DNA of 64,000 bases, taken from contig OZ024740.1 of NCBI GenBank assembly GCA_964016885.1, positions 35,836,001 through 35,900,000 on the forward strand, in the 5' to 3' direction. A model generated the notes under the pieces. It saw only the letters and a program-made list of their open reading frames with translations, searched no databases and was not told the DNA's origin. Shown here piece after piece: positions 3,001 through 62,782 of the stretch. Numbering within the stretch: position 1 is the first letter of the stretch; each line of letters opens with the position of its first letter. Made by a program: the position numbers and the translations under genes. This DNA is from Eledone cirrhosa (Eukaryota).

Positions 3001-6000
3001 TGTACACTTTACCTGTTATATACACTTCACAACATCGTCACAAATAATATATCTATATTGTACACTTTATCTGTTACATACACCTCACAACACTGTAACA
3101 ACTAATATATCTGTATTGTACACTTTATCTTTTATATACAGCTCACAGCACCGCCACAACTAATACATCTCTATTGTACACTTTATCTGTTATATACACC
3201 TCACAACACTGACACAACTAATATATTTGAACTGTACCCTTTATCTGTTATATACACTTCACAACATTGTCATAAGTAATATATCTGTATTGTACACTTT
3301 ACCTCTTATACACACTTCACAACACTGTCACAACTAATATATCTGTATTGTACACATTATCTGTTATATACACATCACAACACTGTCACAACTGATATAT
3401 CTGTAGTGTACACTTAATCTGTTATATAAACCTTACAACACTGACACAACTGATATATCTGTATCGTACACTTTACCTGTTATATACACTTCACAAAATT
3501 TTCACAACTAATACCCCTCTTCTGAACACTTTATCTGTTATATACACTTCACAACACTGTCACAACTAATATATCTGTACTGCATACTTTATCCGTTATT
3601 TACACTTCACAACACTGTCACAACTAATATATCTGTACTGCATACTTTACCTGTTATATACACCTCACAACATTGTCACAAATAATACATCTCTTCTGTA
3701 CACTTTATCTGTTATATACACTTCACAACACTGTCACAACTAATATATCTATATTGTAGACTGTACCTGTTTTATACACCTCACAACAATGTCACAACTA
3801 ATATATCTGTATTGTACATTTTACCTGTTATATACACATCTCATCACTGTCAGAACTAATATATCTCTACTTTACACTTTATCGGTTATATACACCTCAA
3901 ACTAATATAAGTATATTGTAAACTTTATATGTTATATACACTTCAGAACACTGTCACAACTAATATATCTGTATAGTACCCGTTACCTCTTATATACACT
4001 TCACAACACTGTCACAACTAATATATCTATACTGTACACTTTATCTGTTATATACATCTCACAACTCTGTCAAAACTAATATATCTATATTGTACGCTTT
4101 ATCTGTTATATACACTTCACAACACTGTCACAATATATATATTCGTATTGTACACTTTTTCTGTTATATACACCTCACAACACTGTCACAACTAATATAT
4201 CTGTACTGCATACTTTATCCGTTATTTACACTTCACAACACTGTCACAACTAATATATCTGCACTGCATACTTTACCTGTTATATACACCTCACAACATT
4301 GTCACAACTAATACATCTCTTCTGTACACTTTATCTGTTATATACACTTCACAACACTGTCACAACTAATATATCTGTACTGCATACTTTATCTGTTATT
4401 TACACTTCACAACACTGTCACAACTAATATATCTGTACTGCATACTTTACCTGTTATATACACCTCACAACATTGTCACAACTAATACTTCTCTTCTGTA
4501 CACTTTATCTGTTATATACACTTCAGAACACTGTCACAACTAATATATCTGTATAGTACACGTTACCTCTTATATACATTTCACAACACTGTCACAACTA
4601 ATATATCTATACTGTACATTTTATCTGTTATATACATCTCACAACTCTGTCACAACTAATATATCTATATTGTACGCTTTATATGTTATATACACTTCAC
4701 AACACTGTCACAATATATATATTCGCATTGTACACATTATCTTTTATATACACCTCACAACACTGTCACAACTAATATATTTATATTATAACTTTATCTG
4801 TTATATACGCGTCACAACACTGTCACAACTAATATATCTATATTGTATATTTTACCAGTTCTATACACATCACATCACTGTCATAACTAATATATCTCTA
4901 CTGTACACTTTATCTGTTATATACACCTCACAACTAATATATGTATATTGTAAACTTTATATGTTATATACACCTCACAACACTATCACAACTAATATAT
5001 CTATACTGTACGATTTACCTGTTATATACACCTCACAACACTGTCACAACTAATATATCTATATTGTACATTTTCTCTGTTATATACACTTCAGGACACT
5101 GTCACAACTAATATCTATGTTGTACACTTTATCTGTTATATAGACCTCACAGCACTGTCACAACTAATACATCTCTTCTGTACACTTCATCTGTTTTATA
5201 CACTTCACAACACTGTCACAACTAATATATCTGTATTGTACACTTTATCTGTTATATAGAATTCACAACACTGTTACAACTAATATAACTGTGTTGTACA
5301 CTTTACCTGTTATATACACTTTACAACACTGTCACAACTAATATATCTATACTGTACACTTTATCTGTTATATACACCACACAGCACTGTCATAACTAAT
5401 ATATCTATGTTGTACAAATTATCTGTTATATACACCTCACATCACTGTCTCAACTAATATATCTATATGGTACACTTTACCTGTTATATACACCTCACAG
5501 CACCGCCACAACTAATACATCTCTACGGTACACTTTATCTGTTATATACACTTCCCAACACTGTTACAACTAATATATCTATATTGTACACTTTATCTGT
5601 TATATAAACTTCACAACACTGTCATAACTAATATATCTGTATTGTACGCCTTATCTGTTGTATATACCTCACAGCACTGTCACAACTAATATATCTATAT
5701 TGTACACTTTATCTGTTATATATATCTCACAACACTGTCACAACTAATGTATCTATATTGTAAACTTTACCTGTTATATAAACTTCACCACACTGTCAAA
5801 AATAATATTTCTGTATTGTACACATTATGTGTTATATACAACGCACAACACTGTCACAACTAATATACCTATATTGTACACGTTATCTGTTGTATACACC
5901 TCACAAAACGGTCTCAACTAATATATCTATATTGTACACGTTATCTGTTGTATACACCTCACAACACTGTCACAACTAATATATATGTATTGTACACTTT

Positions 6001-9000
6001 ATCTGTTATATACACGTGACAACACTGTCACAACTAATATATCTATATTGTATATTTTACCAGTTCTATACAGATCTAATCACTGTCATAACTAATATAT
6101 CTCTACTTTACACTTTATCGGTTATATACACCTCACAACTAATATATGTATATTGTAAACTTTATATGTTATATACACCTCACAACACTATCACAACTAA
6201 TATATCTATACTGTACACATTATCTGTTATATACACTTCACAACACTGTCACAACTAATATATCTATATTGTACACTTTACCTGTTATATACACTTCACA
6301 ACATTGTCACAAATAATATATCTATATTGTACACTTTATCTGTTACATACACCTCACAACACTGTCACAACTAATATATCTGTATTGTACACTTTATCTG
6401 TTATATACACCTCACAGCACCGCCACAACTAATACATCTCTATTGTACACTTTATCTGTTGTATACACCTCACAACACTGACACAACTAATATATTTGAA
6501 CTGTACCCTTTATCTGTTATATACACTTTTCAACATTTTCATAAGTAATATATCTGTATTGTACACTTTACCTCTAATACACACTTCACAACACTGTCAC
6601 AACTAATATATCTGTATTGTACACATTATCTGTTATATACACATCGCAACACTCTCAAAGCTGATATATCTGTAGTGTACACTTAATCTGTTATATAAAC
6701 CTTACAACACTGTCACAACTGATATATCTGTATTGTGCACTTTACCTGTTATATACACTTCACAACATTGTCACAACTAATACATCTCTTCTGAACACTT
6801 TATCTGTTATATACACTTCACAACACTGTCACAACTAATATATCTGTACTGCATACTTTATCTGTTATTTACACTTCACAACACTGTCACAACTAATAAA
6901 TCTGTATTGTACACTTTACCCGTTATATACACCTCACAACATTTTCACAACTAATACAACTCTTCTGTACACTTTATCTGTTATATACACTTCACAACAC
7001 TGTCACAACTAATATAACTATATTGTAGACTGTACCTGTTTTATACACCTCACAACAATGTCACAACTAATATATCTGTATTGTACATTTTACCTGTTAT
7101 ATACACATCTCATCACTGTCAGAACTAATATATCTCTACTTTACACTTTATCGGTTATATACACCTCAAACTAATATATGTATATTGTAAACTTTATATG
7201 TTATATACACTTCAGAACACTGTCACAACTAATATATCTGTATAGTACACTTTACCTCTTATATACACTTCACAACACTGTCACAACTAATATATCTATA
7301 CTGTACACTTTATCTGTTATATACACTTCACAACACTGTCACAACTAATATATCTGTATAGTACACTTTACCTCTTATATACACTTCACAACACTGTCAC
7401 AACTAATATATCTATACTGCACACTTTATCTGTTATATACACTTCACATCACTGTCACAACTAATATATCTATATTGTACGCTTTATCTGTTATATACAC
7501 TTCACAACACTGTCACAATATATATATTCGCATTGTACACATTATCTGTTATATACACCTCCCAACACTGTCACAACCAATATATTTATATTACGACTTT
7601 ATCTGTTATATACTCGTCACAACACTATCACAACTAATATATCTATATTGTATATTTTAGCTGTTTTATACAAATAACATCACTGTCATAACTAATATAT
7701 CTCTACTGTACACTTTATCGGTTATATACACCTCACAACTAATATATGTATATTGTAAACGTTATATGTTATATACACCTCACAACACTATCACAACTAA
7801 TATATCTATACTGTACACATTATCTGTTATATACACTTCACAACAATGTCACAACTAATATATCTGTATTGTAAACTTAATCTGTTATATAAACCTTACA
7901 GCACTGTCACAACTAACATATCTGTATTGTACACATTACCTTTTATATACACTTCACAACATTGTCACAACTAATATATATATACTGTACGATTTACCTG
8001 TTATATACACCTCACAACACTGTCACAATTAATATATCTATATTGTACATATTATCTGTTATATACACTTCACAACACTGTTACAACTAATATATCTGTG
8101 TTGTACACTTTACCTGTTATATACACTTCACAACACTGTCACAACTAATATATCTATATTGTACACTTTATCTGTTATATACACCACACAGCACTGTCAT
8201 AACTAATATATCTATGTTGTACACATTATCTGTTATATACACCTCACAACACTGTCTCAACTATAATATCTATATTGTACACTTTACCTGTTATATACAC
8301 CTCACAGCACTGTCACAACTAATGTATCTATATTGTAAACTTTACCTGTTATATAAACTTCACCACACAGTCACAACTAATATTTCTGTATTGTACACTT
8401 TATGTGTTATATACACCTCACAACACTGACACAACTAATATACCTATATTGGACACGTTATCTGTTGTATACACCTCACAACACGGTCTCAACTAATATA
8501 TCTATATTGTACACTTTATCTGTTATATACACTTCACAACACTGTTACAACTAATATATATGTATTTTACACTTAATCTGTTATGTAAACCTTACAACAC
8601 TGTCACAACTAATATATCTGTATTGTACACTTTATCTGTTATATACACCTCACAACACTGTCACTATTAATATATCTATATTGTACACTTTATCTGTTAT
8701 ATACACCTAACAGCACTTTCACAACAAATACATTTCTTCTGTACACGTTATCTGTTATATACACGTCACAACAATGTCACAACTAATATATCTATATTGT
8801 ATATTTTATCAGTTCTATACAGATCACATCACTGTCATAACTAATATATCTCTACTTAACACTTTATTGGTTATATACACCTCACAACTAATATATGTAT
8901 ATTGTAAACTTTATATGTTATATAAACCTCACAAAACTATTACAACTAATATATCTATACTGTACACTTTATCTGTTATATAAACCTCACAGCACCGCCA

Positions 9001-12000
9001 CATCTAATACATCTCTACAGTACACTTTATCTGTTATTTACACTTCCCAACACTGTCACAACTAATATATATGAACTGTACCCTTTATCTGTTATATACA
9101 CTTCACAACACTGTCACAACTAATATATCTGTATTGTACACATTATCTTTTATATACACTTCACAACACTGTCACAACTAATATATCTATATTGTACACT
9201 TTATCTGTTATATAAACCTCACAGCACCGCCACAACTAATACATCTCTACTGTACACTTTATCTGTTATTTACACATCCCAACACTGTCACAACTAATAT
9301 ATTTGAACTGTACCCTTTATCTGTTATATACACTTCACAACAATGTCACAACTAATATATCTATATTGTATACTTTACCTGTTATATACACTTCACAACA
9401 TCGTCACAAATAATATATCTATATCGTACAGTTTATCTGTTACATACACCCCACAACACTGTCACAACTAATATATCTGTATTGTACACTATATCTGTTA
9501 TATACACCTCACAACACTGACACAACTAATATATTTGAACTTTACCATATATCTGTTATATACACTTCACAACATTGTCATAAGTAATATATCTGTATTG
9601 TACACTTTACCTCTTATACACACTTCAGAACACTGTCACAACTAATATATCTGTATTGTACACATTATCTGTTATATACACTTCACAACACTGTCACAAC
9701 TGATATATCTGTAGTGTACACTTAATCTGTTATATAAACCTTACAACACTGTCACAACTGATATATCGGTATTGTACACTTTACCTGTTATATACACTTC
9801 ACAACTTTGTCACAACTAACACATCTCTTCTGAACACTTTATCTGTTATATACACTTCACAACACTGTCACAACTAATATATCTGTACTGCATACTTTAT
9901 CTGTTATTTACACTTAACAACACTGTCACAACTAATATATCTGTATTGTACACTTTACCTGTTATATACACCTCACAACATTGTCACAACTAATATATCT
10001 GTATTGTACATATTACCTGTTATATACACATCTCATCACTGTCAGAAATAATATATCTCTACTTTACACATTATCGGTTTTATACACCTCACAACTAATG
10101 TATATATATTGTAAAGTTTATATGTTATATACACCTCACAACACTGTCACAACTAATATATCTATACTGCACACTTTATCTGTTATATACACTTCACAAC
10201 ACTGTCACAACTAATATATCTATACTTTACACATTATCTGTTATATATATCTCACAACACTGTCACAACGTATATATCTATACTGTACACTTTATCTGTT
10301 ATATACACCTCACAACACTATCACAACTAATATATCTATACTGTACACATTATCTGTTATATACACTTCACAACACTGTCACAACTAATATATCTGTATT
10401 GTACACTTTACCTTTTAAATACACTTCACGACATCGTCACAAATAATATATCGATACTGTACGATTTACCTGTTATATACACCTCACAACACTGTCAACA
10501 ATTAATATATCTATATTGTACATTTTATATTTTATATACACTTCACAAGATTGTCACAACTAATATATCTGTATTGTACACACTATCTCTTATATACACT
10601 TCACAACACTGTCACAACTAATATATCTATATTGTACACGTTATCTGTTATATACACCACACAGCACTGTCATAACTAATATATCTATGTTGTACACATT
10701 ATCTGTTACATACACTTCACAACAATGTCACAACTAATATATCTGTATTGTACGCCTCATCTGTTGTATACACCTCACAGCACTGTCACAACTAATGTAT
10801 CTATATTGTAAACTTTACCTGTTATATAAACTTCACATCACTGTCACAACTAACATTTCTGTATCGTACACTTCATGTGTTATATACACCTCACAACACT
10901 GTCACTATTAATATATCTATATTGTACACTTTATCTGTTATATACATCTAACAGCACTTTCACAACAAATACATTTCTTCTGTACACTTTATCTGTTAAA
11001 TACATGTCACAACACTGTCACAACTAATATATATCTACTTTACACTTTATCGGTTATATACACCTCACAACTAATATATGTATATTGTAAACTTTATATG
11101 TTATATACACCTCACAACACTATCACAACTAATACATCTCTTCTGAACACTTTATCTGTTATATACACTTCACAACACTGTCACAACTAATATATCTGTA
11201 CTGCATACTTTATCTGTTATTTACACTTCACAACACTGTCAGAACTAATATATCTGTATTGTACACTTTACCTGTTATATACACCTCACAACATTGTCAC
11301 AACTAATACATCTCTTCTGTACACTTTATCTGTTATATACACTTCACAACACTATCACAACTAATATATCTATATTGTAGACTGTACCTGTTTTATACAC
11401 CTCACAACAATGTCACAACTAATATATCTGTATTGTACACTTTATCTGTTATATACACTTCACAACACTGTCAGAACTAATATATCTATATAGTACATAT
11501 TACCTGTTATATACACATCTCATCACTGTCAGAACTAATATATCTCTACTTTACACATTATCGTTTATATACACCTCACAACTAATATATGTATATTGTA
11601 AACTTTATATGTTATATACACCTCACAACACTGTCACAACTAATATATCTATATTGTACACTTTATCTGTTATATACACTTCAGAACACTGTTACAACTA
11701 ATATATCTGTTTAGTACACTTTACCTCTTATATACACTTCACAACACTGTCACAACTAATATATCTATACTTTACACATGATCTGTTATATATATCTCAC
11801 AACACTGTCACAACTAATATATCTGTACTTTACACATTATCTGTTATATATATCTCACAACACTGTCACAACTAATATATCTATACTGTACACTTCATCT
11901 GTTATATACGCCTCACAACACTGTTACAATTAATATATCTATATTGTACACTTTATCTGTTCACCTCACATCATTTTCACAAGAAATACATCACTTCTGT

Positions 12001-15000
12001 ACACTTTATCTGTTATTTACACTTCACACACTGTCACAACTAATATATCCGTATTGTACACTTTATCCGTTATATGCACTTCACAACACTATCACAACTA
12101 ATATATTTATATTGTACACTTTACCTGTTATATACACTTCACAACACTGTCACAACTAATATATCTGTATTGTACACTTTATCTGTTATATACACTTCAC
12201 AACACTGTCACAACATATATATTCGCATTGTACATTTTATCTGTTATATACACCTCACAACACTGTCACAACTAATATATTTATATTACAACATTATCTG
12301 TTATATACACGTCACAACACTGTCACAACTAATATATCTATATTGTATATTTTACCTGTTCTATACACATCACATCACTGTCATAACTGATATATCTCTA
12401 CTTTATACTTTATCGGTTATATACACCTCACAATTAATATATGTATATTGTAAACATTATATGTTATATACACCTCACAACACTATCACAACTAATATAT
12501 CTATACTGTACACATTATCTGTTATATACACTTCACAACACTGTCACAACTAATATATCTGTATTACACACTTTACCTTTTATATACACTTCACGACATT
12601 GTCACAACTAATATATCGATACTGCACGATTTACCTGTTATATACACCTCACAACAGTCACAATTAATATATCTATATTGTACATTTTATCTGTTATATA
12701 CACTTCATAACACTGTCACAACTAATATCTATATTGTACATTTTATCTGTTATATACACCTTACAGCACTGTCACAACTAATATATCTCTTCTGTACACT
12801 TCATCTGTTTTATACACTTCACAACACTGTCACAACTAATAAATCGGTACTGTACAATTTATCTGTTATTTACCCATCACAACACTGTCACAACTAATAT
12901 ATCTGTATTGTACACTTTATCTGTTATATATACTTCACAACACTGTTACAACTAATATATCTGTGTTGTACACTTTATCTGTTATATACACTTCACAACA
13001 CTGTCACAACTAATATATCTATATTGTACACTTTATCTGTCATATACACCTCACAGCACGGTCACAACTAACATATCTGTATTGTACACTTTATCTGTTA
13101 TATACACTTCACAACACTGTCACAACATATATATTCGCATTGTACACTTTATCTGTTATATAGACCTCACAACACTCTCACAACTGATATATCTATATTG
13201 GACATTTTACCTGTTATATACACATCTCATCACTGTCAGAACTAATATAACTCTACTTTACACTTTATCGGTTATATACACCTCACAACTAATATATCTA
13301 TATTGTACTCTTTATCTGTTATTTACACTTCAGAACACTGTCACAACTAATATATCTGTATAGTACACTTCACATCTAGTATATACACTTCACAACACTG
13401 TCACAACTATTATATCTATACTGTAAACTTTATCTGTTATATACACTTCATACCACTGTCACAACTAATATATCTGTACTTTACACATTATCTGTTATAT
13501 ATATCTCACAACACTGTCACAATTAATATATCTACACTGTACCATTTATCTGTTATATACACCTCACAACACTGTCACAATTAATATATCTATATTGTGC
13601 ACTTCATCTGTTATATACACTTCACAACACTGCCACAACTAATATATCTGTACTTTACACTTTATCTGTTATATACACTTTAGAACACGGTCACAACTAA
13701 TATATCTATATTGTACACTCTATCTCTTATATACACTTCACAACACTGTCCCAACTCATATATCTATAATGTACAATGTACCAGTTATATACACTTCACA
13801 ACACTGTCAGAACTAATATATCCGTATTGTACACTGTATCCGTTATATACACTTCACAACACAGTCACAACTAAAGTATCTATATTGCATACTTTACATG
13901 TTATACACACTAACAACACTGTCACAACTAATATATCTATATTGTAGACTTTATCTGTTATATACACTTCACAACACTGTCACAACAATATATCTATATT
14001 GTGCACTTCATCTGTTATATACATTTCACAACACTGTCACAACTAATATATCTGTACTTTACACTTTATCTGTTATATACACTTTAGAACACGGTCACAA
14101 CTAATATATCTATATTGTGCACTTTAACTGTTATACACTCCTCACAACACTGTCACAACTAATATATCTATATTGTACAATTTATCTGTTATATGCACTT
14201 CACAACACTGTCAGAACTAATATATCCGTATTGTACACTGTATCCGTTATATACACTTCACAACACAGTCAAAACTAAAGTATCTATATTGCACACTTTA
14301 CATGTTATACACACTAACAACACTGTCACAACTAATATATCTATATTGTAGACTTTATCTGTTATATACACTTCACAACACTGTCACAACTAATATATCT
14401 GTACTTTACACTTTATCTGTTATATACACTTTAGAACACTGTCACAACTAATATATCTGTATTGTACACATTATCTATTATATACACTTCATAACACTGT
14501 TACAACTAATATATCTGTGTTGTACACTTCACCTGTTATATACACTTCACAACACTGTCACAACTAATATATCTATATTGTACACTTTATCTTTTATATA
14601 CACCTCACAGCACTGTCACAACTAATATATCTATATTGTACACTTTATCTGTTATATACACCTCACAGCACTGTCACAACTAATATATCTGTATTGTACA
14701 CTTCACCTGTTATATACACATCACAACACTGTCACAACTAATACATCTATATCGTACAATTTATCTGTTATATACACCACACAACACTGTCATAACTAAT
14801 ATATCTACGTTGTACACTTTAGCTGTTACATACATTTCACAACACTGTCACAACTAATATATCTGTATCGTACGTTTTATCTGTTATATACACCTCACAG
14901 CACTGTCACAACTAATATATCTATATAGTACACTTTTTCTGTTATATATATCTCACAACACTATCACAACTAATATATCTGTATTACACACTTTACCTTT

Positions 15001-18000
15001 TATATACACTTCACGACATTGTCACAACTAATATATCGATACTGCACGATTTACCTGTTATATACACCTCACAACAGTCACAATTAATATATCTATATTG
15101 TACATTTTATCTGTTATATACACTTCATAACACTGTCACAACTAATATCTATATTGTACATTTTATCTGTTATATACACCTTACAGCACTGTCACAACTA
15201 ATATATCTCTTCTGTACACTTCATCTGTTTTATACACTTCACAACACTGTCACAACTAATAAATCGGTACTGTACAATTTATCTGTTATTTACCCATCAC
15301 AACACTGTCACAACTAATATATCTGTATTGTACACTTTATCTGTTATATATACTTCACAACACTGTTACAACTAATATATCTGTGTTGTACACTTTATCT
15401 GTTATATACACTTCACAACACTGTCACAACTAATATATCTATATTATACATGTTATCTGTTATATACACCTCACAACACTGTCACAACTAATATATCTAT
15501 ACTGTACACTGTTTCTGTTATATACACTTCACAGCCCTTTCACAACTAATATGTCTGTACTGTACCCTTTATCTTTTATATACACCTCACAGAACTGTCA
15601 CAACTAATATATCTATATATACACTTTATCTGTTATATACATTTCACAACACTGTCACAACATATATATCTGTACTTTACCCTTTACCTGTTATATACAC
15701 TTCAGAACACTGTCACAATTAATATATCTGTATTGTACACTTTATCTGTTATATACACGTCACAACACTCTCACAACTAATATATCTATATACTACATTT
15801 TACCTGTTATATACACATCACATCACTGTAAGAACTAATATATCTCTTCTTTACAATTTATCTGTTATATATACTTCGCAACACTGTCAAAAGTAATATA
15901 TCTGTGTTTCTACACTTTATCTGTTAAATACGCTTCACAACACTGTCACAACTAATATATCTATGTTGTACACTTTATCTGTTATATACACCTCACAACA
16001 CTGTCACAACTAATATATCCGTATTGTACACTTTATCTGTTATATACACCTCACAGCACTGTCACAACTAATATATCTATATTGTACACTTTATCTGTTA
16101 TATATATATCTCACAACACTGTCACAACTAATATATCTGTATTGTACACTTTATCTGTTATATACACATTATAACAATGTCACAACTAATATATCTCTAC
16201 TTTACACTTTATCGGTTATATACACCTCACAACTAATATATGTATATTGTAAACTTCATATGTTATATATACCTCACAACACTGTCACAACTAATACATC
16301 TATATTGTACACTTTATCTGTTATATACATTTCACAACACTGTCACAATTAATATATCCGTATTGTACACTTTATCCGTTATATACACTTCACAACACAG
16401 TCACAACTAATGTATCTATATTACACCCTTTACATGTTATACACACCTAACAACACTGTCACAACTAATATATCTATATTGTACACTTTACCTCTTATAC
16501 ACACTTCACAACACTGTCACAACTAATATATCTGTACTTTACACTTTATCTGTTATATACTCCTCCCAACACTGTCCCAACTAATATATCTATATTGTAC
16601 ACTTTACCTGTTATATACACTTCACAACATCGTCACAACTAATATATCTATATTGTACACTTTATCTGTTATATACACCTCACAACACTGTCACAACTAA
16701 TATATCTGTATTGTACACTTTATCTGTTATATACACCTCACAGCACCGCCACAACTAATACATCTCTACTGTACACTTTATCTGTTATATACACTTCCCA
16801 ACACTGTCACAACTACTATATTTGAACTGTACCCTTTATCTGTTATATACACTTCACAACATTGTCATAAGTAATATATCTGTATTGTACACTTTACCTC
16901 TTATACACACTTCACAACACTGTCACAACTAATATATTTATATTGAACACTGTATCTGTTCTATATATCTCACAACACTGTCACAACTAATATATATGTA
17001 TTGTACACTTTACCTGTTATATACACCTCACAACACTGTTACAACTAATATATCTATATTGTACACTTTATCTGTTATATACACCTCACAGCACCGTCAC
17101 AACTAATATATCTCTACTGTACACTTCATCTGTTATATACACTTCACAACACTGTCACAACTAATACATCTGTATTGTACACTTTATCTGTTATGTACAC
17201 CTCACAACACTGTCACAACTAATATACCTGTATTGTACACTTTATCTGTTATATACACCTCACATCACCGTCACAACTAATACATCTCTACTGTATATTT
17301 ATCTGTTATATACACTTCACAACACTGTCAAAACTAATATATCTGTACTGTACACTTTATCTGCTATATACACCTCACAACTAATATATCGTTTTTGTAC
17401 ATTTGATCTGTTATATACACTTCACCACACTGTCACAAATAATATATCTGTATTGTACACTTCATCTGTTATATACAACTCACAGCACTATCACAACTCA
17501 TACATCTCTACTGTACACTTTATCTGTTATATACACTTCACAACACTGTCACAACTAATATATCTGTACTGTACACTTTATCTTTTATATACACCTCACA
17601 ACTTATATATGTATATTGTACATTTCATCTGTTATATACACTTCACCACACTGTCACAACTAATATATCTATATTGTACACTTCATCTGTTTTATACACC
17701 TCACAGCACTGTCACAACTAATACATCTCTACTGTACACCTTATCTGTTATATACACTTCACAACACTGTCATAACTAATATATCTGTACTATACCCTTT
17801 ATCTGTTATATACACTTCACAACATTGTCATCATTAATATATCTATATTGTACACTTTATTTGTTATATATATCTCACAACACTGCCACAACTAATATAC
17901 CTGTACTGTACACTTTACTTGTTATATACACTTCACAACATTTTCACAACTAATATATCTATATTGTACACTTTATCTGTTATATACACTCAACAACACT

Positions 18001-18993
18001 GTCACAACTAATATATCTATATTGTAAACTTTACCTGTTCTATACACATCACATCACTGTCATAACTGATATATCTCTACTTTACACTTTATCGGTTATA
18101 TACACCTCACAATTAATATATGTATATTGTAAACTTTATATGTTATATACACCTCACAACACTATCACAACTAATATATCTATACTGTACACATTATCTG
18201 TTATATACACTTCACAACACTGTCACAACTAATATATCTGTATTGTACACTTTACCTTTTATATACACTTCACGACATTGTCACAACTAATATATCGATA
18301 CTGCACGATTTACCTGTTATATACACCTCACAACAGTCACAATTAATATATCTATATTGTACATTTTATCTGTTATATACACTTCATAACACTGTCACAA
18401 CTAATATCTATATCGTACATTTTATCTGTTATATACACCTTACAGCACTGTCACAACTAATATATCTCTTCTGTACACTTCATCTGTTTTATACACTTCA
18501 CAACACTGTCACAACTAATAAATCGGTACTGTACAATTTATCTGTTATTTACCCATCACAACACTGTCACAACTAATATATCTCTACTGTACACCTTATC
18601 TGTTATATACACTTCACAACACTGTCACAACTAATATATCTGTATTTTACACTTTATCTGTTATATACACCTCACAACAGTGTCACAACTAATATATTTA
18701 TATTGAACACTGTATCTGTTATATATATCTCACAACACTGTCACAACTAATATATCTGTATTGAACACTGTATCTGTTATATATATCTCACAACACTGTC
18801 ACAACTAATATATCTGTATTGTACACTGTACCTGTTATATACACCTCACAACACTGTCACAACTAATATATCTATATTGTACACTTTATCTGTTATATAC
18901 ATCTCACAACACTTTCACAACTAATATATTTATATTCTACACTTTACCTGTCATATACACATCACAACAGTCACAACCAAAAGATCTGTATTG
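1..18993. repeat. 58-bp tandem satellite array (>=19 kb, runs off the window start), intronic
   Basis: Consensus CTGTCACAACTAATATATCTATATTGTACACTTTATCTGTTATATACACTTCACAACA repeated continuously with point variants. A recurrent variant lacks 11 nt (CACTGTCACAA). The array degenerates at ~18990. Confidence 0.97.
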
Positions 18994-50157: not shown

Positions 50158-50209
50158 GTAAGTTACATAATAGCAAAACAGTTTTATATCCTGTTTCTAC
50201 CATCTTCTT

Positions 50210-50334
50210 TTCAATCCCCGAGGTAATAACAAACAAACGCTCGATTTGTTTGGGTCGATCTCGTTATAAAGAATTGTTCGTTACAACGAATTTTTTTATA
50301 CCCCGTGAATTTCGTTATAACGGAATTTCCCTGT
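50210..50334. mobile_element. Partial copy of the neighbouring Tigger/pogo-like MITE
   Basis: ATAACAAACAAACGCTCGATTTGTTT...TTCGTTATAACGGAATTTCCCTG-TA duplicates 50495-50603. Confidence 0.65.
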
Positions 50335-50418
50335 ATTATCTTACAACCTTTATTCCTAAGTTACTTGCAGAACTTACAGTTACCCAAGAAGCAATCTTCA
50401 AATATGGCCATTTGCATA

Positions 50419-50603
50419 CAGGTAAAATTCCGTTATAACAAATACCATTATAACGAATTTTTCTGTATAACGAGTTTTTTTCAATCCCTGATATAATAAC
50501 AAACAAACGCTCGATTTGTTTCGGTCGATCTCGTTATAAAGAATTTTTCGTTACAACGAATTATTTTATACCCTGTCAATTTCGTTATAACGGAATCTCA
50601 CTA
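50419..50603. mobile_element. Tc1/mariner (Tigger/pogo-like) MITE, ~185 bp
   Basis: TA|CAGGTAAAATTCCGTTATAAC ... GTTATAACGGAATCTCACTA|TA terminal inverted repeats with TA flanks and internal GTTATAAC/ACGAA sub-repeats. Confidence 0.7.
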
Positions 50604-50744
50604 TATAAGGTAAACCTCGAGATATCAACCATAATCTTTAAAAATCAGATCGTGAATTTTCTTTAAAGACACTCTTAATAAATAAATCATCAAGTTACTA
50701 CTTAGGGAAAATCCAGATATGCATCAAACCGGTTACAGCCCTTG

Positions 50745-51063: not shown

Positions 51064-51588
51064 ATTGATAATGTAGGTATGGTTAGATAAGGAAACCATT
51101 GGCATCAGGTGAAACACCAGTTTTTATTGTAGGGTGGATATTTTCTTCTATTTTTCTCTTCCTCCGTACACAGACCTCTTGTGATGGTTTGCTGCCCACC
51201 GTCACCTGACGAGGTCTCGGATTCAGAGAAGTTTAAGACCGAGAAAACGGAGAGGTATATTTGTGTGTGTATTTGTATTTATGTTTAGCTGGGGGGGAAA
51301 GAGAGAACTGTTGTGATACTGGGTAGAGAGGATGTGATAGAAACCCGGCTTCGGTGGACCCCTGATCAATGTGGATCAGTCGAAAGCCTATTTTCGAGGA
51401 TTATGTAGCATTCACATCTGGTTGTCTGTGTGGAGTAGGAGGCAGTGTCGTTTCGGAAATGTTTGGGTTTCAAAGTAAGGACGATATTCCTGGGCCTAGA
51501 ATTATGTTGGTGGTAGTGCTGGGCGTTCCATCAATAGATGTACCAATAAGGTTACATCATTAGATACACGAGTAAAGTTACATTAATA

Positions 51589-51995
51589 CATGTACCACTG
51601 AAGTTATATCAGCAGATGTACCAATGAAGTTATATCAGCAGATGTACCAATGAAGTTATATCAACAGATGTACCATTGAAGTTATATCAACAGATGTACC
51701 AATGACGTTATATCAACAGATGTACCACTGAAGTTATATCAACAGATGTACCAATGAAGTTGTATCAACAGATGTACCACTGAAGTTATATCAACAGATG
51801 TACCACTGAAGTTATATCAACAGATGTACCACTGAAGTTATATCAACAGATGTACCACTGAAGTTATATCAACAGATGTACCAATGACGTTATATCAACA
51901 GATGTACCAATGACGTTATATCAACAGATGTACCAATGAAGTTGTATCAACAGATGTACCAATGACGTTATATCAACAGATGTACCAATGAAGTT
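51589..51995. repeat. 26-bp minisatellite, ~15 copies
   Basis: Unit GATGTACCAATGAAGTTATATCAACA with CACTG/CAATG and GAAG/GACG variants. Confidence 0.95.
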
Positions 51996-55315: not shown

Positions 55316-55563
55316 GTTTGACATGTTTTAAATTACATTTATTTATGGCAGTGTATAAACATAGTTACATCACACTTGATCTAAGATGATGTTCGTGAGA
55401 TGTGTAATGAACACATTTTGAATTTGATGTGAACGTAACTTTGAACTTACAAATATTTGTATTATTATAGACATAGAATATTCGAAAATATTCTGTATGT
55501 TTATAATAAACATTTTGAAGACCTAATCGCTATAGAATAGAATACGTCACGTATTACAATTAG

Positions 55564-55652
55564 ATTCTCGACAAAAGCAAGGGAAGTAATCTACGCGTTT
55601 CATTCTTGTTAGAAATCATCAGGACCACATATCCAGTGCTTTTATCGAGAAT
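55564..55652 (-). ncRNA. Type I hammerhead ribozyme, first of 8 minus-strand copies (repeat every 310 nt to ~57800)
   Basis: Minus strand GTGGTC-CTGATGA-TTTCT AACA AGAAT-GAAA-CGCG-TA^GATTAC. Stem I is GUGGUC/GAUUAC, extended by ATTCTCGATAAAAGCA/TGCTTTTGTCGAGAAT. Minimal palindromic stem III ACGCGT. Confidence 0.85.
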
Positions 55653-58043
55653 GACACAGCTAGAGACTTATAGAATACTTAGCTGTGTACAGGAACTGGT
55701 TTGAAAGAGCGGTTGCCGGTCCGGCAGAAATTAGAAATTGGAATAAATGCTCTGAAATAGCGATATATATGTGAATATAGACATAGAATATTCGAAAATA
55801 TTCTGTATGTTTATAATAAACATTTTGAAGACCTAATCGCTATAGAATAGAATACGTCACGTATTACAATTAGATTCTCGACAAAAGCAAGGGAAGTAAT
55901 CTACGCGTTTCATTCTTGTTAGAAATCATCAGGACCACATATCCAGTGCTTTTATCGAGAATGACACAGCTAGAGACTTATAGAATACTTAGCTGTGTAC
56001 AGGAACTGGTTTGAAAGAGCGGTTGCCGGTCCGGCAGAAATTAGAAATTGGAATAAATGCTCTGAAATAGCGATATATATGTGAATATAGACATAGAATA
56101 TTCGAAAATATTCTGTATGTTTATAATAAACATTTTGAAGACCTAATCGCTATAGAATAGAATACGTCACGTATTACAATTAGATTCTCGACAAAAGCAA
56201 GGGAAGTAATCTACGCGTTTCATTCTTGTTAGAAATCATCAGGACCACATATCCAGTGCTTTTATCGAGAATGACACAGCTAGAGACTTATAGAATACTT
56301 AGCTGTGTACAGGAACTGGTTTGAAAGAGCGGTTGCCGGTCCGGCAGAAATTAGAAATTGGAATAAATGCTCTGAAATAGCGATATATATGTGAATATAG
56401 ACATAGAATATTCGAAAATATTCTGTATGTTTATAATAGACATTTTGAAGACCTAATCGCTATAGAATAGAATACGTCACGTATTACAATTATATTCTCG
56501 ACAAAAGCAAGGGAAGTAATCTACGCGTTTCATTCTTGTTAGAAATCATCAGGACCACATATCCAGTGCTTTTATCGAGAATGACACAGCTAGAGACTTA
56601 TAGAATACTTAGCTGTGTACAGGAACTGGTTTGAAAGAGCGGTTGCCGGTCCGGCAGAAATTAGAAATTGGAATAAATGCTCTGAAATAGCGATATATAT
56701 GTGAATATAGACATAGAATATTCGAAAATATTCTGTATGTTTATAATAAACATTTCGAAGACCTAATCGCTATAGAATAGAATACGTCACGTATTACAAT
56801 TAGATTCTCGACAAAAGCAAGGGAAGTAATCTACGCGTTTCATTCTTGTTAGAAATCATCAGGACCACATATCCAGTGCTTTTATCGAGAATGACACAGC
56901 TAGAGACTTATAGAATACTTAGCTGTGTACAGGAACTGGTTTGAAAGAGCGGTTGCCGGTCCGGCAGAAATTAGAAATTGGAATAAATGCTCTGAAATAG
57001 CGATATATATGTGAATATAGACATAGAATATTCGAAAATATTCTGTATGTTTATAATAAACATTTTGAAGACCTAATCGCTATAGAATAGAATACGTCAC
57101 GTATTACAATTAGATTCTCGACAAAAGCAAGGGAAGTAATCTACGCGTTTCATTCTTGTTAGAAATCATCAGGACCACATATCCAGTGCTTTTATCGAGA
57201 ATGACACAGCTAGAGACTTATAGAATACTTAGCTGTGTACAGGAACTGGTTTGAAAGAGCGGTTGCCGGTCCGGCAGAAATTAGAAATTGGAATAAATGC
57301 TCTGAAATAGCGATATATATGTGAATATAGACATAGAATATTCGAAAATATTCTGTATGTTTATAATAAACATTTTGAAGACCTAATCGCTATAGAATAG
57401 AATACGTCACGTATTACAATTAGATTCTCGACAAAAGCAAGGGAAGTAATCTACGCGTTTCATTCTTGTTAGAAATCATCAGGACCACATATCCAGTGCT
57501 TTTATCGAGAATGACACAGCTAGAGACTTATAGAATACTTAGCTGTGTACAGGAACTGGTTTGAAAGAGCGGTTGCCGGTCCGGCAGAAATTAGAAATTG
57601 GAATAAATGCTCTGAAATAGCGATATATATGTGAATATAGACATAGAATATTCGAAAATATTCTGTATGTTTATAATAAACATTTTGAAGACCTAATCGC
57701 TATAGAATAGAATACGTCACGTATTACAATTAGATTCTCGACAAAAGCAAGGGAAGTAATCTACGCGTTTCATTCTTGTTAGAAATCATCAGGACCACAT
57801 ATCCAGTGCTTTTGTCGAGAATCTAATTGTAATACGTGACGTATTCTATTCTATAGCGATTAGGTCTTCAAAATGTTTATTATAAACATACAGAATATTT
57901 TCGAATATTCTATGTCTATATTCACATATATATCGCTATTTCAGAGCATTTATTCCAATTTCTAATTTCTGCCGGACCGGCAACCGCTCTTTCAAACCAG
58001 TTCCTGTACACAGCTAAGTATTCTATAAGTCTCTAGCTGTGTC

Positions 58044-58132
58044 ATTCTCGATAAAAGCACTGGATATGTGGTCCTGATGATTTCTAACAAGAATGAAACG
58101 CGTAGATTACTTCCCTTGCTTTTGTCGAGAAT
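58044..58132 (+). ncRNA. Type I hammerhead ribozyme in the inverted arm (sense to the host gene)
   Basis: CTGATGA 58074-58080, GAAA 58095-58098, predicted GUA cleavage after 58104. Same fold as the minus-strand copies. Confidence 0.85.
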
Positions 58133-58326
58133 CTAATTGTAATACGTGACGTATTCTATTCTATAGCGATTAGGTCTTCAAAATGTTTATTATAAACATA
58201 CAGAATATTTTCGAATATTCTATGTCTATATTCACATATATATCGCTATTTCAGAGCATTTATTCCAATTATTTGTATTATTATTAATTCTACGTGGAAC
58301 CAATATATTCTTTACTTTTACAGCAC

Positions 58327-58641
58327 AATTTTGAACCGGGGAAAATTTTAAGAAACAACGTCCCGGACGGTAAATTCACAGAAAAACAGCTGTTCGGTGG
58401 GAAATTATTCTTTTTCATAGTTGTATTTTTCGTGTATTTTCAACGAATCTGACCTGCGAATCTGTCGGAAACGACTTTTCTTTTAGAAAAAGGAAGGCGG
58501 TTTTCTAAAAAAAAACGAGACGTATCTGACTGATTTGGAGGTCAAATTCGTTGAAAACATAAAAAAGGCTAGGAAAAAGAACAATTTCTCACCGAACGGC
58601 CGAGGAGTTTATTCTGTAAATTTATCTCTAGCGGTTCAATT
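58327..58641. mobile_element. Degenerate palindromic MITE / foldback element
   Basis: Long imperfect inverted repeats: TTCGGTGGGAAATTATTCTTTTTC...TTTTCAACGAATCTGACCT versus AGGTCAAATTCGTTGAAAA...GAAAAAGAACAATTTCTCACCGAA. Outer TTGAACCG/CGGTTCAA. Confidence 0.65.
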
Positions 58642-58692
58642 CTCTTTCAATCACGAAAAGAACCATGGATTTTAGTTTAAGCTTAACCCAGC

Positions 58693-60490
58693 TTGTCATT
58701 TATGAACTCGGAGGTGATGGGGAGATACAACATAGAAGTAAGCAACAAATTTGAAGCACTCCAACTACTTCAAGAACAGAGAATGCCAGAAGAGCTGTTT
58801 ACGACACTCAAGGAGACAGTAAAGACAGTAGCGGAGGAAGTGTTTGGGAACGAGTCAAAAAGACCGAGGAAAGCGTGGATCTCCAAAGCCACTCTCCATC
58901 TAATGGACGAGCGCAAAAAACTCGAACGTACCAGGGCTACTTCCGAGTTTAATGAAACAAAGTACCAGGAATTGGATAAAGCAGTACAGAGGGAAGCCAG
59001 AGAGTACAAGGCAACATAGTTGAAAGAGCAGTGTGTTGAGGTTGGGGAGGCATTGCAGATACATAATATACGGAAGGCATACAGTGTCATAAAGTCACTA
59101 AAAAAAGGCTTCCATGTAAAACAAAGAAATATTGAGGACGATGAAGGAATGGTCCTGACTAATCTTCAGGACATTCTTAAAGGTGGAAGGAATATGGTGA
59201 AAGACTAAGGGGAGGCAACTAATCAACAAGTCGATGTTGGAAGGGATGAATTTCCATCCATTCTGGAATCAGAAGTCAGGGAGTCTTTGAATAGGATGCC
59301 TAACAATAAAGCTGCTGGTATCGATGACCTGCCTGTAGGGCTTTTCAAGATAGACAACGAAACAAAGATTAAGATATTGTGCTGACTATGCAACAGAATT
59401 GTAGAAACAGGCAAGTGACCTGCCAATTGGAAGAAGGCAGTTTTTATTCCCATACCAAAGATTTCCACACTATCCACACTAGCAAGATCCTCTCTTAGAG
59501 AGAACGCATAGAACGGTTGAAGAACAATGTGCGGACGAACAAATGGGTTTCAGAATGGATCAGATTTTCAATATCAGAATTATCATGGAAAAAACAAGGG
59601 AGTTTAATGTGCCTTTGTATTTAGCATTTGTAGATTACAAAAAGGCATTTGACTCTGTATTACATTCAACGCTTTGGAACGTATTGAAGAGGATGGGGTG
59701 AATGGCTCAATGGTGAAATTATTAAAGAATCTGCATCACGAGCAACAAGCTGCTGCAGTGACTGGAAAAAGAATTCACAGAATGGTTCACTGTAAACAGA
59801 TGAGTTCAACAGGGATGTCTGGTGTCACCTTTGGCATTCAATTTTTACTCTGAAAAAGTAATAAGAAAGTCAGTAGATATGCTCTCTTGGATCGAGGTTA
59901 CTGTTGGTGGGAAATAGATCAACAACCTGCCGTATGCTGAACATATAATGCTCATAGCAAACACTGCTGGCTAAAATTTACAGAATTTCAAAGGAATATA
60001 GTCTGGAGATCAACATCAAAAAGACAAAAGTAATGGCAGCAACTAGACAGAAGGAAGAAATGACTATAAGGTGATAGGCTTGAACAAGTAGAGAAGTTCA
60101 ATACTTGAGCAGACGGCAAAGATGAAGCTGGGAAATAAGGGCGAAACAAGCAACTGGAAGAACAGTTCTGAGCACACTCAGCAGCCTCTGGAAGATAGAG
60201 CTCTTACAAAGTCCTCAAATAAGAAAGTAATCAAAACATTAGTGTGGCAGGTAGCTTTACATGGTTGTGAATCAAGGACTTTAAAGGCATCTGACTTGAA
60301 ACAACTGAGTGCATTTGAAATGTTATGCTATAGGTGTGAACTCAGAATTAGCTGGACAGATGATATTAAGGAATGGACAGGAGGGAGTTTGGTGGAATGT
60401 ACAGCAATGGCAAGAGACAGGAAAAGATAGAGAGTACTGGTCCATAAGTTCATAACCCCCGACCCTCAAATATGAGGATGGGATAGAGAA
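58693..60490 (+). mobile_element. Decayed RTE-clade LINE (tether plus RT), many stops and frameshifts
   Basis: Peptides KAWISKATLHLMDERK, ILESEVRESLNRMPNNKAAGIDDLP, WKKAVFIPIPK, DQIFNIRIIMEKTREFNVPLYLAFVDYKKAFDSV, QGCLVSP, LEINIKKTKVM, VALHGCES. Confidence 0.92.
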
Positions 60491-60669
60491 GAACATATAT
60501 ATATCATGAAGGAAGTGTTGTAAGGAACTAGGTGGACCATAACGCACCAGAGTACTCGATACTATGGGTAGTAGAGTGGGTAATAGGAAAAGTGTCAGAC
60601 CCCGATGGCTGAGCTCCGGCCGTTTCGACAGCAATTTCTGAACGCTGTCGGGGTTCTGACTCTTTTCTT

Positions 60670-60702
<33 letters not shown>

Positions 60703-60707
<5 letters not shown>

Positions 60708-61105
60708 AAATTTCGCTCTACATGGCTGAATACAATACATGTAATCTGAGTTTTTCGAATATTAACAATAACATTCGATTCGTTTGCAATTATGCAAACA
60801 AGCCTCAATTTTATGCAGATCTGACTGATCAGCCAGTCTGCTAATATGTAAATCAGGCCGATCAGTCACTGTGTACTTTTGAAAATAGCATATATTTTCA
60901 CGAGCTCTGATAGCTTGTCAGGTGAACAGTGAGCTGTACTGATGAAGGGTGATACCCAGAAACATTAGTGTCTGCAGTTCTGTTCGCATGCCAACACAAG
61001 AGCAAGAATGAAGGGTTTATTCTACTGACATGGCTATAAAATTGAGGCTTGTTTGCAAAATTGCAAACGAATCGAATGTTAATATTCGAAAAACTCAGAT
61101 TACAT
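60703..61105 (+). mobile_element. Hammerhead-containing non-coding element B with ~75-bp inverted ends, inserted between (TA)n tracts
   Basis: Inverted repeats at 60739-60814 and ~61035-61105 (GTAATCTGAGTTTTTCGAATATTAACA...). Internal type I HHR. 36 extra nt lie between the left inverted arm and the (TA)n. Confidence 0.75.
60922..60987 (+). ncRNA. Type I hammerhead ribozyme
   Basis: GTGAACA-GT-GAGCTGTA-CTGATGA-A-GGGT GAT ACCC-A-GAAA-CA TTAG TG-TC^TGCAGTTC-TGTTCGC. Stem I has 8 bp plus a 7-bp extension. Predicted GUC cleavage after 60972. Confidence 0.82.
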
Positions 61106-61430
61106 TAATTATATATATATATATATATATTAGAATTGGTGCTCTGAAATAGCTATATATATATGAATGTATATATAGTGTATGTTGCAATACACTGTAT
61201 GCTTAATTAAGTGAGTCTGTCACTACTCTAAAACAATAGCATAAGGTCTTAGAAATGCTTTTAATTAAGAATAGAGTGTATTGCAAAATACACTGTATGT
61301 ACATTCATATATATATATAGCTATTTCAGAGCACCAATTCTAATTTTCAATTTCTGCTTGACTGGCAACCGCTCTGTATAATAAGTTCCTGATTATTTAC
61401 TAGAATTCTATAAGAACCAAACATCCATGA

Positions 61431-61522
61431 TTTCAGCAAACAGGAGGAGTAGTTGGCTTTGATAAGCATCAATAAATGCGAAACAAGGCCTTGTCAGCTT
61501 TATCTCCCCCTGTTTGCTGAAA
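61431..61522 (+). ncRNA. Type I hammerhead ribozyme with variant core UUGAUAA (U3-A8), copy 1
   Basis: GGCT-TTGATAA(61459-61465)-GCAT CAATAA ATGC-GAAA-CAAGGCCTTG-TC^AGCT. Outer stem TTCAGCAAACAGG/CCTGTTTGCTGAA. Palindromic stem III ACAAGGCCTTGT. Confidence 0.78.
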
Positions 61523-61754
61523 ATTAAAGTAAGTGAGTCTGTCACTACTCTAAAACAATAGCATAAGGTCTTCGAAATGCTTTTAATTAAGCATACAGTG
61601 TATTGCAAAATACACAATATATACATACATATATATATATATAGCTATTTCAGAGCACCAATTCTAATTTTAAATTTCTGCTTGACCGGCAACCGCTCTG
61701 TATAATCAGTTCCTGATTATTTACTAGAATTCTATAAGAAACAAACATCTATGA

Positions 61755-61846
61755 TTTCAGCAAACAGAGGGAGTAGTTGGCTTTGATAAGCATCAATAAA
61801 CGCGAAACAAGGCTTTGTCAGCTTTATCTCCCCCTGTTTGCTGAAA
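61755..61846 (+). ncRNA. Type I hammerhead ribozyme with variant core UUGAUAA (U3-A8), copy 2
   Basis: Same fold 324 nt downstream, with one mismatch in stem II (GCAT/ACGC) and one change in stem III. Confidence 0.7.
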
Positions 61847-61949
61847 ATTAAAGTAAGTGAGTCTGTCACTACTCTAAAAGAATAGCATAAGGTCTTCGAA
61901 ATGCTTTTAATTAAGCATACAGTGTATTGCAAAATACACAATATATACA

Positions 61950-61952
<3 letters not shown>

Positions 61953-62006
<54 letters not shown>
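61953..62006. repeat. (TA)n microsatellite (further tracts at ~60675-60702 and 61111-61130)
   Basis: Seen directly. Confidence 0.95.
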
Positions 62007-62009
<3 letters not shown>

Positions 62010-62782
62010 TATATAATGCGTACAGGCTTTATTTCTAACACATCTCTGCTACTCAGTTCTTTTCGAACTTCTTCCCTCAGCACGAGGAATCTATCATCAC
62101 ACAGAATTCACTCTCACCCTCACTCAAAACTTTCATCTAGATATGTGCAACAAAGATCTTTAGTCATTCTGGCTCAAATTCTTTCATCTCAATTATTTCA
62201 TGTTGGAATGATGGGAAATGTTGAAGCATTGGGTATCACAAGTTGTTCCTCGTGGCAACAACTCTTCTAACCCATCATAGTTGGTATAGTGTTTGCTACC
62301 TCCCCATATATCTCTAGCCAATAGTGTAGAGTTTGCCACTATCCCAATTCTTCTTCCATATCACTTTTTCTTTCGTCTTTTTTTGTCTTTTTGTCATTAT
62401 GATATAAATGTATTTTAAATAAAATAATTACTAAATATTTTATGTTGACTTTACTGTTTTCCGAATGCCTTCAACCCTAAAAGGACGTTCAACTATATTT
62501 TGTTCTGTATAACATGTCAAACACACCTTATATCAACGTATTAGACGTTCAGACTGACCACTGTCGTTTACATTGACAGCTCCAGTCTGGAGTTGTCTGG
62601 AAAGTGTCTGAGAATTCACTCACAAAGTAATATAAAAAACGGTCCCATTATCCTGGGAACAATTGATTTATTCCATGAAAATTCAATAAACAGTTTCAGA
62701 TTTTATAAGATTTAGATTTATAGAGGATGGATAATTGAATACTCTGACATTTATGTTTTTTTCCAAACACACAAGCAATGTA

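Follow-up and report, generated by a model that had tools for sequence, protein, structure and literature searches.

In a 64,000-nt stretch of the genome of Eledone cirrhosa (assembly GCA_964016885.1, contig OZ024740.1, positions 35,836,001 to 35,900,000; hereafter the window), three non-coding elements, here called A, B and C, are built as head-to-head arms whose outer ends fall at two fixed sites of the repeated monomer. We consider it probable (roughly 0.8) that a Neptune-type Penelope reverse transcriptase–endonuclease inserted A, B and C in trans as head-to-head arrays that were already complete. The shared end architecture had been pointed out in an earlier note drawn from the letters of the window alone, and it holds both there and genome-wide, where the outer ends of 99 loci lie, mostly within (TA)n, at two fixed positions some 35 nt from each other.

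Fixed ends of the arrays and of coding Penelope-type elements

Element A, in a host genome of 3.0 Gb, is a minus-strand array of 310-nt units at 55466-57813 of the window (the left boundary becomes 55469 if the target duplication is counted at its full 15 nt), faced by an inverted arm at 57807-58270 (464 nt) that matches the array at 99-100% and continues for about 40 nt beyond the array end. This layout is repeated, within (TA)n, by B (60703-61105) and by C (61131-61950). In B, the left arm carries 36 extra nt (60703-60738) that are missing from the right end and that other genomic copies show to be a genuine continuation of the monomer; in C, the inverted arm (61129/31-61210) extends through GCTATTTCAGAGCA, and the main array terminates in (TA)n. 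All three extensions had been described in the earlier note, which overlooked a 15-nt direct repeat framing A (Table 1) as well as a fourth such inverted unit (about 60495-60668).

We mapped at least 28 loci of A (the window copy and 27 clusters among the matches listed), 39 of B and 32 of C; two duplicates of the B and C block of the window (L052, L085) and TA-only hits were left out of the end census, and the largest arm cluster per locus was used. With the phase counted from the predicted hammerhead cut, the sense-3′ ends lie inside two narrow intervals, amounting to 5-9% of the monomer, in 51 of 52 cases for A, 49 of 64 for B and 49 of 54 for C. The modal exact ends of A are at phases 129 and 164, those of B cluster at 137-147 and 169-178 (about 140 and 174), and those of C at 131-147 and 169-179 (long site 172). 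Alignment of the termini thus bears out the fixed ends and near-constant tail that had been expected across copies. The intervals were chosen after the data had been seen, and binomial p-values for their occupancy are overstated; the pairing of the ends depends less on this choice. Two arms are present at 71 loci (24/28 for A, 25/39 for B, 22/32 for C). Both ends coincide with the fixed sites in 56 of them, of which 54 combine one short with one long end (23/23 for A, 14/16 for B and 17/17 for C; p = 1e-7, 0.002 and 8e-6, respectively, against a 50:50 expectation); at the other 15 an end lies elsewhere. Contrary to the earlier note, the tail is not tied to the inverted 5′ arm, being found on the shorter arm at 30 loci and on the longer arm at 24.

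That note had taken random termini and random inversion points alike as speaking against its reading. The termini proved to be fixed, and the inner junction phases of A look random, being uniform (n=48, Kolmogorov–Smirnov p=0.56), which we count in support. The arms of A overlap at the junction by 0-7 nt in 19 of 23 loci, with short inserts in three and one complex case. (TA)n abuts 46/52 ends of A, 48/64 of B and 39/54 of C, or 133/170 overall, as raw counts without a genome background rate.

The Neptune-type Penelope elements of the same genome show the same end geometry as A, B and C. From a GIY-YIG search with 10,596 candidates, 150 were scored and 75 loci read, giving the families N1-N6 and P7 and a few P7-like copies; the open frames of L126 and L128 are 938 and 1096 codons long, respectively. 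In all N families but N5, which has one broad end class, a hammerhead-like motif is followed downstream by two fixed ends lying in (TA)n, and the tails measure 28-65 nt (end phases 76/141 in N1, 124/164 in N2, 177/215 in N3, 125/~177 in N4 and 117/145 in N6). Their hammerhead-like core motifs were read by eye, and that of one family is degenerate. One short and one long end are found in 10 of the 12 coding loci with both strands resolved, the others being L152 (two tail-to-tail copies) and L143 (N5), and in 5/5 N3 loci; the queries for N1 and N3 selected long-ended copies. The N2 motif reads GCAA instead of GAAA and may be inactive.

Window A also provides an empty allele. Sample S1 (a single sample, comprising runs X1-X3) yields a 1529-nt contig in which 55468 is followed directly by 58285 and the 15-mer occurs once. 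Since its depth of 11.3 is near the summed alleles of the adjoining bubble (5.3 + 7.5), both S1 chromosomes appear to be without A, and because A is missing from S1, the window copy is a young, polymorphic insertion. For these retrozymes a target duplication longer than 4 bp was found in this one case (11-15 nt, with the empty allele); inside (TA)n it is unreadable. Window A, which lies outside (TA)n, ends 4-7 nt before the usual short site, at a 3-nt match to the target, and short homology may therefore help priming.

Monomers, family relations and known counterparts

As judged from their monomers, A, B and C are probably retrozymes that lack long terminal repeats (non-LTR retrozymes), that is, non-coding tandem units with predicted hammerheads. 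The monomers measure 310, about 440 (442) and 324 nt, all inside the 150-450-bp retrozyme range, and B occurs as a tandem unit too (L056 and L071). Their GC content is 33-39% and their longest ATG frame 30-83 aa; among the open reading frames (ORFs) examined in A, B and C, none combines a reverse transcriptase (RT) with GIY-YIG, a combination present at other loci. Motif scan and folding place a type I hammerhead motif, with core and stems, in every unit of A, B and C. Rfam yields no match at threshold for any of the three, and below it 17-22 bits against 52 for A and C (HH9 for A) and none for B. Stem II is closed by U-U in A and by A-A in B. The C array of the window has two U3-A8 hammerhead variants with predicted cuts after 61495 and 61819; such a core has been reported from Penelope elements in a paper that also notes hammerhead pairs on opposite strands (PMC4209133). 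Folded as circles, the monomers are strongly self-paired (z of -4.4 for A, -8.3 for B and -5.0 for C against 40 dinucleotide shuffles). The summed depth of A contigs, about 4 x 10^5 against 11-13 for single-copy sequence, is no copy-number measurement and hints that A units number tens of thousands.

The three elements are not as independent as the earlier note had it. A and C are identical at 209/329 positions, with an alignment score of 61 against a shuffled maximum of -32, and are sister families. B gives no overall alignment to A or C, and its tail weakly resembles theirs: the last 40 nt are like those of family G (p=0.0005) and of C (p=0.009), the likeness to A being non-significant (p=0.12-0.16). 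A, B and C stem from three insertions yet belong to no more than two lineages. Further families with such ends are E (L112:2433-2894), which is 72-78% identical to C, G (L227:65-175 and 1542-1652), which connects B to C through their tails, and D (L142:3192-3333), with a hammerhead close to that of A and a 68-nt tail. U-U closes stem II in A (window 58074-58104), D, E and N4 (L112, L129, L142), and stem changes compensate between families. With the majority alleles of A in run X1 (window 58070, 58124), U-G pairs of stem I and of the long rod become U-A.

Animal non-LTR retrozymes have been defined by Cervera and de la Pena (2020, PMC7229834), who showed their circles, regarded Penelope elements as strong candidate movers and envisaged an RT making tandem cDNA (complementary DNA) from the circle; the hypothesis is repeated in PMC8969392, and a 2026 preprint (Li, Clavereau and Pollet, bioRxiv 10.64898/2026.07.22.740005) adds co-occurrence and homology of pseudo-LTRs (pLTRs) and discusses local amplification. 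A, B and C resemble these retrozymes in being tandem, AT-rich, non-coding, self-paired units of 150-450 bp with type I hammerheads, for which Penelope mobilisation via circular RNA has been proposed. Whereas the animal retrozyme papers argue from co-occurrence and pLTR homology, A, B and C show the end signature, no pLTR homology to a coding element having been found, and their cleavage and circles are predicted; in the preprint, 8/9 predicted frog elements failed to cleave.

With the endonuclease-positive (EN+) Neptune-type insertions described by Craig et al. (2021, PMC8557442), Frangieh et al. (2024, PMC11167929) and Arkhipova et al. (2013, PMC3846280), A, B and C share an inverted 5′-truncated copy, a tail of 30-40 nt at either end (a tail at either end being noted in PMC8557442), an AT-rich or (TA)n target and an upstream hammerhead. 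Mobilisation in trans has been shown for Penelope elements (PMC3846280), and rotifer Penelope elements make 8-10-bp target duplications (PMC8557442, PMC11167929, PMC3846280). Unlike Neptune-type elements, A, B and C have no ORF and consist of many identical short units rather than partial tandems of a 3-6-kb element, and neither a counted one-short-one-long rule nor a haplotype common to both arms was found in the portions of the Neptune-type literature examined. The Chlamys elements, such as MRC1 (PMC8557442), are likewise non-autonomous Penelope-type elements with multicopy head-to-tail insertions, but they are algal, resemble autonomous partners at the 3′ end and belong to a clade without canonical hammerheads.

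No end analysis of retrozyme arrays was found in the literature examined, which consisted of partial main texts; Repbase, Dfam and subscription papers were outside the search, and supplements may hold cases. In the main texts of the two animal retrozyme papers tail or inverted-arm analysis is absent ('inverted' gives 0 hits in PMC7229834, 'tail' 0 hits in the 2026 preprint), and the available portions of papers on schistosome W-elements and Ectocarpus hold nothing on such ends. The element class and the tail signature are thus each already known; A, B and C are new members, with mechanistic evidence better than found in print.

Template, mode of insertion and alternatives

Nearly all units of each A locus carry one haplotype, which both arms share at all 24 two-armed loci. 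Units differ from the haplotype of their locus at 44 of 77,946 bp, nearly all of these being singletons, and each of three locus-private variants is carried by every unit of its locus (6/6, 4/4 and 3/3). In run X1 the marker alleles 19G and 275G amount to about 1% and 0.5% of the A depth, and because they are rare in the pool, two RNAs drawn from it would seldom match. Where the arms overlap, 16 of 17 singletons are on one arm only and one is shared in register (L181). One arm is contained in the other at 39 of 54 loci, and neither contains the other at 15, window B among them. Given the haplotype common to both arms of A and these 15 loci, which fold-back copying would be unable to produce, two primings on one RNA molecule fit best. 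The fixation of new variants requires a one-monomer bottleneck, which a circle would simply supply; it could equally come from template jumping on a cleaved monomer or from local homogenisation. On balance we lean, by a small margin of belief, towards a monomeric circle made by ribozyme cleavage and ligation and read round repeatedly as the template, rather than a linear multimer. As a separate observation, rare haplotypes of A, single as well as double, are all present, which hints at recombination or template switching.

The insertion could proceed as follows. A Neptune-type enzyme would nick both strands of AT-rich DNA with a stagger, and the two target 3′ ends would prime cDNA synthesis on a single RNA, from the short site in one case and from the long site in the other. 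Both cDNAs would run back through a variable number of units, to be joined by 0-7 nt of microhomology and then filled in. The anole Penelope protein cuts and extends both strands in vitro, starting at two sites that bound the tail; in the same paper an enzyme dimer is predicted and ribozyme cleavage is unneeded in vitro (PMC11167929). One may go further and imagine a dimeric Neptune-type enzyme that twin-primes on a single ribozyme-made circle at two sites 35 nt apart, rolls round it in both reactions and writes multi-kilobase arrays in one step, the RNAs parasitising the enzyme without terminal-repeat homology and the one-short-one-long rule being a general Penelope footprint. This complete picture is offered tentatively, and we would sooner expect one or other of its parts to fall than all of them to stand.

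Several observations weigh against insertion by a Neptune-type enzyme as set out here. The earlier note had suggested integration in trans by Penelope RT and GIY-YIG machinery, for which the end geometry of this genome's elements with RT and GIY-YIG speaks, and had recommended a search for an autonomous element sharing the terminal motifs; none appeared among the seven coding families read at 75 of the 10,596 candidate loci, where BLAST and local alignment (z ≤2.3) gave no terminal-repeat homology to A, B or C. The best tail match, to N3, has p=0.007 uncorrected with the commonest copy and is lost after correction for 10 candidates. Ends outside both sites amount to 15/64 in B and 5/54 in C, and 28/99 loci have a single arm only. 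The short ends are AT-rich, and some priming by homology to (TA)n is possible, unlike the anole result. The A sample was seeded by rare alleles, which may have enriched it for arrays in which those alleles are fixed; the private variants were unselected. The singleton that L181 shares in register between its arms is unexpected for a monomeric circle. At L102 (G000:C14:23498500-23508499), one pair of Penelope-type ends encloses a C array of 27 units in which a higher-order repeat spans 12 units, and from this periodicity it follows that local array expansion occurs as well.

That short Penelope-type insertions came first and that the arrays then grew in place by unequal crossing-over, a scenario discussed in the 2026 preprint, would likewise yield a single haplotype per locus, and the variant classes of L102 as well as L032 and L036, each with one variant in two units, are what such growth would leave behind. 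As the origin of the arrays in general it is nonetheless improbable, given how few and how scattered the deviations among A units are, that both arms are often multimeric and that the 9-unit insertion of the window, missing from another sample, is young. For rotifer Penelope elements self-priming has been proposed (PMC3846280). A single cDNA made from RNA would here fold back and copy itself into the inverted arm, with an endonuclease cut setting the second end, and the shared haplotype, the 39 loci with contained arms and the in-register variant of L181 would all be accounted for; it fails, however, for the 15 loci without containment, and the 16 one-sided singletons mean that first-strand errors were not copied, unless most of them arose after insertion, so that we find self-priming quite hard to accept.

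A role for the RT of a long interspersed nuclear element (LINE), moving A, B and C like the RNAs of short interspersed nuclear elements and making the inversion by twin priming, is brought to mind by the decayed LINE-like RT fragment between A and B, and a target duplication of 11-15 nt falls within the LINE range. Against this, there is no poly(A) or repeat tail, the ends are internal to the monomer and at two fixed sites, the geometry agrees with the GIY-YIG elements of the genome, and arms overlapping in sequence are unlike L1 twin priming; the chance that a LINE was responsible appears very slim. Window B on its own does resemble a miniature inverted-repeat transposable element (MITE), a 400-bp unit with inverted ends of about 75 nt in (TA)n, as if left by a DNA transposon inserting at TA. 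The uniform terminal inverted repeats that the earlier note associated with such an origin were not seen: across the A, B and C loci arm lengths run from about 40 to 9,132 nt with offset ends, and in B the inverted part ranges from about 40 to more than 600 nt, B is tandem elsewhere and the tail occurs on either side. An origin of B and the others as MITEs has practically nothing left to recommend it.

Insertion by a Neptune-type enzyme would bear on two questions, namely by what animal retrozymes are moved and in what way Penelope elements come to have tailed inverted ends. The retrozyme–Penelope link gains copy-level evidence from a very young family (units 99.9% alike, one polymorphic insertion), and phases 129 and 164 of A are exact predicted priming sites for an existing in vitro assay. 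The one-short-one-long rule constrains the mechanism of coding elements too, and the arrays suggest that some satellite-like arrays arrive ready-made. As driver, N3 (median divergence 0.9%) is a weak lead: its 38-nt tail compares with that of A at p=0.0025 using the L128 tail and at 0.007 using the tail of 27/30 copies, and with that of C at 0.018. N1 was rejected as a partner of A, B and C, and an apparent match of A at L142 and L135 turned out to be merely the hammerhead of the separate small unit D. Horizontal spread of A was rejected as well. Between 63 and 91% of A words occur in 20 runs from 17 coded organisms, X4-X19 being filed under 16 other organisms; in X4, X5 and X6, where depth was examined, it is 5-54 against 3-5 x 10^5 in X1, accompanied by fragments of read length from B, C and the neighbouring repeat, which fits trace carry-over and gives no sign of transfer. 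No RNA run appears among the listed runs that contain A.

The window and its surroundings

Table 1. Position, strand and character of the array features in the window
Feature	Position	Strand	Remarks
A target-site duplication, left copy	55454..55468	+	15 nt at most, 11 once microhomology is allowed for; single copy in empty allele
A long arm	55469..57813	-	eight hammerhead motifs in 7.6 units of 310 nt; has the short end (phase 122-125, counted from the predicted cut)
A inversion junction	57807..57813	.	arms overlap by 7 nt, head to head
A short arm	57807..58269	+	1.5 units; long end, phase 164
A minimal type I hammerhead motif	58068..58110	+	from motif scan; predicted cut after 58104
A 35-nt tail, family-wide	58235..58269	+	phases 130-164; about 40 nt relative to the short end of the window copy itself
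A target-site duplication, right copy	58270..58284	+	direct repeat of 55454-55468
(TA)17, left flank of B	60669..60702	.	
B inverted arm with long end	60703..60814	-	tail 60703-60738
B second arm, short end	60812..61105	+	0.7 unit; type I hammerhead motif 60931-60980, predicted cut after 60972
(TA)10 separating B from C	61110..61130	.	
C inverted arm with long end	61131..61210	-	phase 172; start 61129/31
C array	61208..61950	+	2.3 units of 322-324 nt; short end merges into (TA)n
(TA)n, right flank of C	61951..62015	.	

Directly to the left of B, the fourth head-to-head unit, F (about 60495-60668), has a pair of fixed ends in (TA)n, separated by about 82 nt, and shows an apparent 3′ half of a hammerhead; it is very common among the loci examined, with a summed depth of at most 9 x 10^5 in X1. 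The block formed by F, B and C is duplicated 1.2 Mb away on the same contig (G000:C1:34668693-34672488; L052, L085) with 98-99% identity. Between A and B, the segment 58700-60480 is, as read from translation only, a decayed RT fragment of LINE-like type, broken by numerous stops and frameshifts, and an imperfect 210-nt palindrome at 58389-58600 (76% self-match) is possibly a small DNA-transposon remnant. Elsewhere, the window holds two large abutting satellites (1-18993 and 19552-47579, with units of 58 bp and 45 bp), a repeat spaced at 270 bp (50205-50606) and a 26-bp minisatellite at 51530-51995.

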